From Escherichia coli (GTDB lineage: Bacteria > Pseudomonadota > Gammaproteobacteria > Enterobacterales > Enterobacteriaceae), in NCBI RefSeq assembly GCF_003334315.1, contig NZ_QOWR01000036.1: a DNA stretch of 46,318 nucleotides, one strand, 5' to 3'. Shown in pieces: positions 45,811-45,846 of this stretch (position 1 is the first letter of the stretch; the number at the start of each line of letters is the position of its first letter). The position numbers and the translations under genes were made by a program. Below the pieces are notes generated by a model. That model had not been told where the DNA came from, made no database searches, and worked only from the letters and a program-made list of their open reading frames with translations.

Positions 45811-45846
45811 CGCCATGAAGCTCTTTCATGGCGATTTTTTATTCTT
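45811..45846 (+). terminator. intrinsic terminator abutting the right IS1
   Basis: Stem cgccatga / tcatggcg with loop agctctt, followed by attttttatt; 20 bp before the IS1 end. Confidence 0.65.

Follow-up and report, generated by a model that had tools for sequence, protein, structure and literature searches.

A probable intrinsic terminator beside IS1 in an Escherichia coli prophage end predates the insertion and may close a small moron-like phage module

The described systems that come closest to the locus discussed here are the canonical intrinsic terminators of E. coli and its phages, the morons of lambdoid phages, the small membrane protein YncL of E. coli K-12, and the gap between tfa (orf-194) and ea47 in phage lambda. 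Morons are extra genes that stand between phage genes and possess their own promoter and terminator (definition quoted in PMC2629481). YncL is a stress-induced membrane protein of 31 aa; when it is produced the membrane is depolarized, and the nucleoid is condensed (PMC12542507). It is also a substrate of RseP (PMC10470546). In Salmonella, yncL gives rise to a short, stand-alone, sigma-S-dependent transcript, which was first annotated as the sRNA STnc1110 (PMC5437024).

The locus lies near the right end of the window, by which is meant the whole stretch of DNA analyzed (46,318 nucleotides of E. coli, RefSeq assembly GCF_003334315.1, contig NZ_QOWR01000036.1). Its central element has two parts:

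45810-45834, plus strand: stem-loop of the probable terminator, with a 10-bp perfect stem (45810-45819 / 45825-45834) and the loop GCTCT (45820-45824)
45835-45844, plus strand only: T-tract TTTTTTATTC, directly 3' of the stem

An earlier note on this DNA had described here a strong terminator with a perfect 8-bp stem and a U-tract. Hairpin and T-tract are both found at that place; the stem is indeed perfect but measures 10 bp rather than 8, with the arms TCGCCATGAA (45810-45819) and TTCATGGCGA (45825-45834) and 5 G-C pairs; allowing for a G-U pair extends it to 11 pairs with a loop of 3 nt. The U-tract is likewise real and corresponds to TTTTTT at 45835-45840, followed by ATTC. The isolated hairpin has a dG of -14.4 kcal/mol, and its 61-nt context folds at -18.2 kcal/mol (z = -6.1), a stability that none of 200 shuffles equaled. 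When the surrounding 1.67 kb was dinucleotide-shuffled 2000 times and both strands were scanned, only 5 shuffles gave a perfect stem of at least 10 bp with at least 6 T in the next 8 positions. Three other sites in the whole 46-kb window combine a perfect stem of at least 8 bp with a T-run, and the hairpin is the strongest terminator-like site of the window. The scan had a positive control in a clean intrinsic terminator that directly follows ydfZ and reads AATGCCGCC-GAT-GGCGGCATT, then GCTTTTTTTA (41334-41354, plus strand).

The hairpin thus has the two attributes of a Rho-independent terminator, a stable GC-rich stem-loop and an adjacent U-rich tract on the transcribed strand, and it is probably a functional, though ordinary, one. 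With the canonical terminators of E. coli and its phages it shares the GC-rich 10-bp stem, the short loop and the adjacent U6, as well as the position downstream of a co-directional ORF in the gap between convergent genes. It differs from them, as far as the letters tell, in its unusually long distance from the stop codon (148 nt) and in being strictly one-directional. The minus-strand stem runs into GTACATAAAC, which has 2 T in 8 positions and no T-run, and the 5' flank of the stem on the plus strand is GTTTATGTAC, which has no A-run. Because the T-run occurs on the plus strand only and no A-run precedes the stem, the element would terminate transcription in one direction, that of the plus strand.

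The surroundings of the hairpin are those of a prophage end inserted in an otherwise unremarkable part of the chromosome. Window positions 2658-44453 correspond colinearly to the hipA-ydfJ segment of K-12 (99.4% identity); what had been called an island between two IS1 copies is therefore ordinary core chromosome. The left IS1 copy ends at 453, and the features at the other side are:

42911-44194, minus strand: ydfJ, its N-terminus truncated by prophage integration
44195-45865, no strand assigned: lambdoid prophage end of 1.67 kb in ydfJ (the Qin attachment site), equivalent to the b region of lambda
44911-45108, plus strand: 65-aa ORF, a "hypothetical protein" (WP_001421370.1) in RefSeq E. 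coli genomes

In K-12, ydfJ is likewise truncated at the N-terminus, there by the Qin prophage, whose content at the equivalent end differs (ynfT, ydfK, pinQ). In genomes lacking this IS1, the stretch 44195-45865 is 99.7-100% identical and after another 61 bp reaches the stop codon of a tfaQ-like tail-fiber assembly gene on the minus strand, past which a tail-fiber gene, lom and J are found. The longest plus-strand ORF in the 1.67-kb prophage end has 86 aa, in agreement with the earlier statement that no long ORF stands upstream on this strand. The 65-aa ORF belongs to a cluster of 185 members on more than 1000 contigs, and its best family match is a very weak one to GlgS (E = 0.037).

The same prophage end also contains matches to the 3' ends of intact tfa genes at 76-79% identity (45240-45390 and 44507-44601, minus strand; a further one at 44376-44467), and a minus-strand ORF at 45241-45390 terminates in ...AAWKKYRVLL...IEWPAVPVG, similar to the Tfa C-terminus. 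By these matches the prophage end looks like a stack of tail-fiber-assembly gene remnants, presumably left by repeated cassette replacement. Weak matches to IS009 (44525-44716 and 45280-45355, minus strand), the only Rfam hits at an E of 1 or better, coincide with these tfa 3' remnants.

Within the prophage end, the hairpin closes a block that recurs in phages and in other chromosomes:

45349-45865, plus strand: conserved phage module of 517 bp with a sharp left boundary, comprising a promoter-like site, an ORF, a 3' stretch and the probable terminator
45497-45525, plus strand: promoter-like site TTGACT-17-TATTGT, a candidate (9/12 match), about 35 nt upstream of the ORF start
45560-45661, plus strand: 33-codon ORF MKIQSKLIVLLNIIIAFILFELLAQKFGLSTLF, by HMM and BLASTP an unannotated, divergent YncL-like small membrane protein
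45662-45809, plus strand: conserved stretch of 148 nt, predicted to be 3' untranslated, between the ORF stop and the hairpin

Three cultured lambdoid phages, mEp332, ev099 and PhiR70_1, carry the module at 95-97% identity, and it also occurs in 17 IMG/VR viral contigs, whereas it is absent at the same position from lambda and from K-12 Qin. Of 5426 complete E. coli genomes, about 829 have the 467 bp that end at the IS1 junction; every copy is chromosomal, and nearly all copies have no IS1 beside them. A 26-mer internal to the ORF and the hairpin pattern match an identical set of 17 viral contigs, about 194 nt apart, and the two elements co-occur at fixed spacing in every copy examined. To the left of 45349, similarity to the window is lost sharply in 16 of 23 loci. 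On the other side, the coding end of Tfa (minus strand) lies at the same rightward offset in all 22 IS1-free loci, with similarity over the whole protein in 17 and over the last 47 residues only in 5. The order is accordingly constant: tfa 3' end, a 92-nt spacer, the hairpin, the 148-nt stretch, the ORF and the promoter-like site.

The hairpin shows no change across the 23 compared copies; all of these are at least 95% identical and the stem is invariant, so that its pairing draws no support from covariation. BLAST in a distant mode against phages and E. coli returned no copies below 95% identity. No IS1 stands beside the hairpin in the phage copies or in the two IS1-free chromosomal loci examined (L001 and L002), and the hairpin is thus older than the IS1 at the window site. 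The gene order of phage ev099 (xis and int on the plus strand, the att region, IS remnants, an AraC-family gene on the minus strand, a small hypothetical gene and the module on the plus strand, then tfa and the tail fiber gene on the minus strand) indicates that the plus strand of the window is the integrase direction, the l strand of lambda, and that it converges with the late tail-fiber genes.

The likeness to lambdoid morons lies in the small size of the module, its sharp mosaic boundaries, a nonstructural gene ending in a strong terminator, and an uneven distribution, the module being found in mEp332, ev099 and PhiR70_1 but not in lambda or K-12 Qin. With its boundary at 45349, it behaves as a discrete block that is either there or not. 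It may be expressed independently, as morons are, but its candidate promoter matches the consensus only weakly, and in this it departs from them.

Against the NCBIfam YncL model (NF000537) the 33-codon ORF scores 25 bits (E = 1.3e-5), below the curated cutoff of 35, and for this reason annotation pipelines miss it; RefSeq calls nothing in this region. BLASTP aligns it with K-12 YncL at 39% identity over 28 aa. A YncL-only HMM, built from 10 YncL sequences with the ORF left out, gives it 28.9 bits (E = 2.8e-8), and the next best of the 726 window ORFs reaches 5.7 bits; the similarity to the family is significant, specific and full-length. A profile search of 1.84 billion representatives recovered the enterobacterial YncL family, whose C-terminal motifs LLAEKFGWF and LLASKFNWF resemble LLAQKFG of the ORF. 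In a set of 15 billion proteins the exact peptide comes from just 2 contigs, both unnamed, and PHROGs has no family for the 33-aa, 65-aa or 31-aa ORFs. A tblastn search of phages and plasmids with the peptide gave no match in spite of the identical copies in mEp332, ev099 and PhiR70_1, an outcome probably due to the low-complexity filter of BLAST.

Like K-12 YncL, the ORF encodes a peptide of similar length with a single hydrophobic helix, and the gap-free alignment has 11 identical residues, which include M1, S5, V9-L10, N12, A16, L19-F20, L22 and F27-G28. In contrast, the conserved Trp after FG is Leu in the ORF, which has 3 extra C-terminal residues; furthermore, yncL is chromosomal and has the Shine-Dalgarno sequence AAGGTGG, whereas the ORF is phage-borne and lacks one. 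Judged by these similarities, the ORF is an unannotated and divergent relative of YncL. It is intact in all 23 copies that cover it; the only changes are a synonymous ATC to ATT and an Ile-to-Val replacement, a divergence too small for a test of coding constraint. Because no Shine-Dalgarno sequence is found upstream, translation of the ORF can only be presumed.

A second hairpin, TTTGAGC-TTTTA-GCTCAAA followed by AATTTGGTTT (45617-45635), lies inside the ORF, is terminator-like on the plus strand and is unchanged in all copies. It might be a pause or attenuation site, or it might be due to chance.

Among the readings offered by the earlier note, termination of a short transcript is the best supported, on account of the fixed linkage to the ORF, the membership of both in one 517-bp module and the position of the T-tract on the ORF strand; the transcript itself is a prediction. 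With moderate confidence, the one-directional terminator can be regarded as the 3' end of a self-contained, moron-like phage unit that encodes a 33-residue YncL-like membrane peptide. The module stands at the far end of the b region of a lambdoid prophage in ydfJ, head-to-head with the 3' end of tfa. RNA polymerase traveling on the plus strand in the integrase direction, from the candidate promoter of the module (45497-45525) or from further upstream, would transcribe the GC-rich 10-bp stem and U6 and be released at about 45838-45842. Starting near 45530 and ending at about 45840, the transcript would be some 310 nt long. The terminator would thereby keep convergent plus-strand (antisense) transcription out of the tail-fiber/late operon; IS1, as a later arrival 25 bp past the T-run, would be shielded from incoming transcription only incidentally.

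Some observations do not sit easily with this reading. The 148-nt gap between stop codon and terminator is long for so small a gene; the candidate promoter matches at only 9 of 12 positions; the ORF has no Shine-Dalgarno sequence and falls below the YncL cutoff. Moreover, phage transcripts antiterminated by N or Q would ignore a hairpin terminator. Promoter-like sites with 9/12 matches are not enriched (4 found versus 7.9 expected in shuffles), and the hexamers of the site at 45497-45525 are invariant in 23 copies. The predicted 311-nt transcript folds better than shuffles (z = -3.9); long-range pairing of its 5' and 3' parts is absent from the centroid structure, and the frequency of the MFE structure is about 0. 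A literature search found no Term-seq or transcript study covering the region or the genomes that carry the module.

Since the module existed long before IS1 arrived, the terminator is ordinary and its presence is not surprising. Taken alone it has very little significance, being an intrinsic terminator of the standard kind and standing where such elements are usual, between convergent phage genes. One by-product of the analysis is a correction: the hairpin is linked neither to IS1 nor to a lost gene. The phage-borne YncL-like ORF is the sole mildly new item: about 15% of complete E. coli genomes, together with several inducible lambdoid phages, carry what appears to be an unannotated YncL-like small-protein gene. 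Should the peptide be expressed and depolarize membranes like YncL, it would represent a new phage accessory function.

One can speculate further that the module is a cassette for a membrane-depolarizing peptide, expressed from the prophage or during infection and acting like a small toxin, although this seems unlikely. Its roles could be, for example, in superinfection exclusion, in abortive infection, in the timing of lysis or as a dormancy switch; the long structured 3' stretch and the terminator could set its output, possibly together with an antisense transcript. Compared with type I toxin-antitoxin loci, a hydrophobic peptide is present, and the only antisense signal is a promoter-like site on the minus strand at 45751-45722. 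The sequence of this site is ATGACA-18-TAACAT (9/12), and if the site is active the 3' stretch and the ORF would be transcribed in antisense, as happens at type I loci. The scan showed no terminator on the minus strand downstream of the site.

The terminator might instead be a general end-stop for transcription in the integrase direction (b region, lambda l strand), with the ORF incidental or decayed, an explanation that is unlikely but compatible with the moron-like unit rather than exclusive of it. It gains from the fact that the plus strand is the xis/int direction in ev099, from the missing Shine-Dalgarno sequence and the weakly supported promoter of the ORF, and from lambda, where the arrangement is equally convergent, ea47 facing tfa, and a hairpin lies in the 128-bp gap. 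This lambda hairpin (12-bp stem, 9-nt loop) has the same map position, between the end of tfa and the last integrase-direction gene of the b region, but it shares no sequence similarity with the hairpin of the window, lacks a T-run on the l strand and did not register as terminator-like; the likeness is an analogy of position, not homology. What speaks against a general end-stop is that the sequence left of 45349 varies among phages while the block of ORF and hairpin is constant, and that the ORF is clearly YncL-related and uninterrupted in 23 of 23 copies. In addition, the b region of a prophage is cut off from pL, and transcripts antiterminated by N would read through.

The stem-loop could also act on the late stf-tfa transcript of the minus strand, either as a bidirectional terminator or as a 3' hairpin that stabilizes the RNA against exonucleases once transcription has terminated further downstream. 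The distance from the tfa stop codon to the hairpin is about 92 nt throughout, the stem of the minus-strand RNA is equally stable (-18.5 kcal/mol in context), and no canonical minus-strand terminator occurs between tfa and ydfJ in the IS1-free loci. A bidirectional terminator, though, has an A-tract 5' and a U-tract 3' of its stem, and here GTTTATGTAC before the stem contains no A-run and the minus-strand tail GUACAUAAAC contains no U-tract, so that the two-sided A/U tracts are missing; intrinsic terminators are, besides, ignored by Q-modified polymerase. A role on the minus strand is for these reasons improbable.

No greater chance is given to the idea that the hairpin terminates a noncoding small RNA, processed from the 148-nt 3' stretch or started from a promoter within it. 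The stretch, which includes the small hairpin AGTGGC-TTAC-GCCACT (45762-45777), is conserved as well as the ORF, and its extra small hairpins and the end in a stem plus U-run are reminiscent of Hfq-dependent sRNAs. The history of Salmonella yncL, annotated at first as an sRNA (PMC5437024), points the same way. Yet conservation is uniformly high across the module and hence is no specific signal, no Rfam family matches the module, this stretch included, at an E of 1 or better, and no plus-strand promoter-like site was found between 45662 and 45809. The general end-stop, the minus-strand stabilizer and the small RNA are all less well supported than a short transcript that ends at the hairpin.

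The remaining possibilities concern the insertion sequence:

45866-46318, minus strand: IS1, incomplete because the window stops within it; the IRR end is towards the hairpin, and insB is at 45881-46258 (minus strand)

The right inverted repeat (IRR), GGTAATGAC..., begins at 45866, which is 31 bp past the stem, 25 bp past T6 and 19 bp past the end coordinate that the earlier note had given for the hairpin; the spacing of about 20 bp and the ORF-to-hairpin distance of about 150 nt that it reported (148 nt from stop codon to stem) were both accurate. The alternative in which IS1 destroyed a plus-strand gene and the hairpin is what remains of its 3' end is refuted: only the position of the hairpin next to IS1 favors it, and IS1-free genomes and phages are identical upstream and have no such gene there. 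The proposed comparison with homologous loci lacking IS1 was carried out and gave this same upstream sequence; beyond the insertion site there is only the tfa stop codon, on the opposite strand and 61 bp on. IS1 entered 61 bp before that stop codon and left the terminator intact. The suggested block to read-through into IS1 could plausibly be a side effect of the hairpin, but it cannot be the reason for its existence, because the hairpin predates IS1 and occurs in free phages.

The closeness of the two elements has parallels. In strain 2023CK-01509 an independent IS1 is inserted directly after GGCGATTTTT, in the T-tract and 26 bp closer than that of the window; early-region genes adjoin it there, which is a sign of rearrangement. 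In strain AH01 another independent IS1 lies about 100 bp further out, within the last codons of tfa. The 130 bp or so on the right of the hairpin have consequently received at least three independent IS1 insertions in different strains, all in one orientation, and this argues that proximity to the terminator reflects target choice and not function. IS1 prefers AT-rich targets, and repeated hits in a small AT-rich zone by the terminator fit this preference. The positions concerned are 45835-45866 in the window, about 3140 in locus L025 and about 2780 in locus L026; IS1 is also nearby in two further genomes (H32 and H33).

A fusion promoter reading outward from IS1 across the hairpin was considered and rejected, as inspection of the flank by eye revealed no -10 hexamer that was both acceptable and correctly spaced. 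The exact junction of hairpin and IS1 seen in the window was not found among complete E. coli genomes. Two inverted IS1 copies bracket the window (1-453 and 45866-46318) with both IRR ends inward, and an IS1-mediated inversion or deletion may have occurred. Next to the left copy, window positions 454-2657 are not colinear with K-12, where ydeT and yneL stand, and they contain a 315-aa ORF (1532-2479, plus strand).
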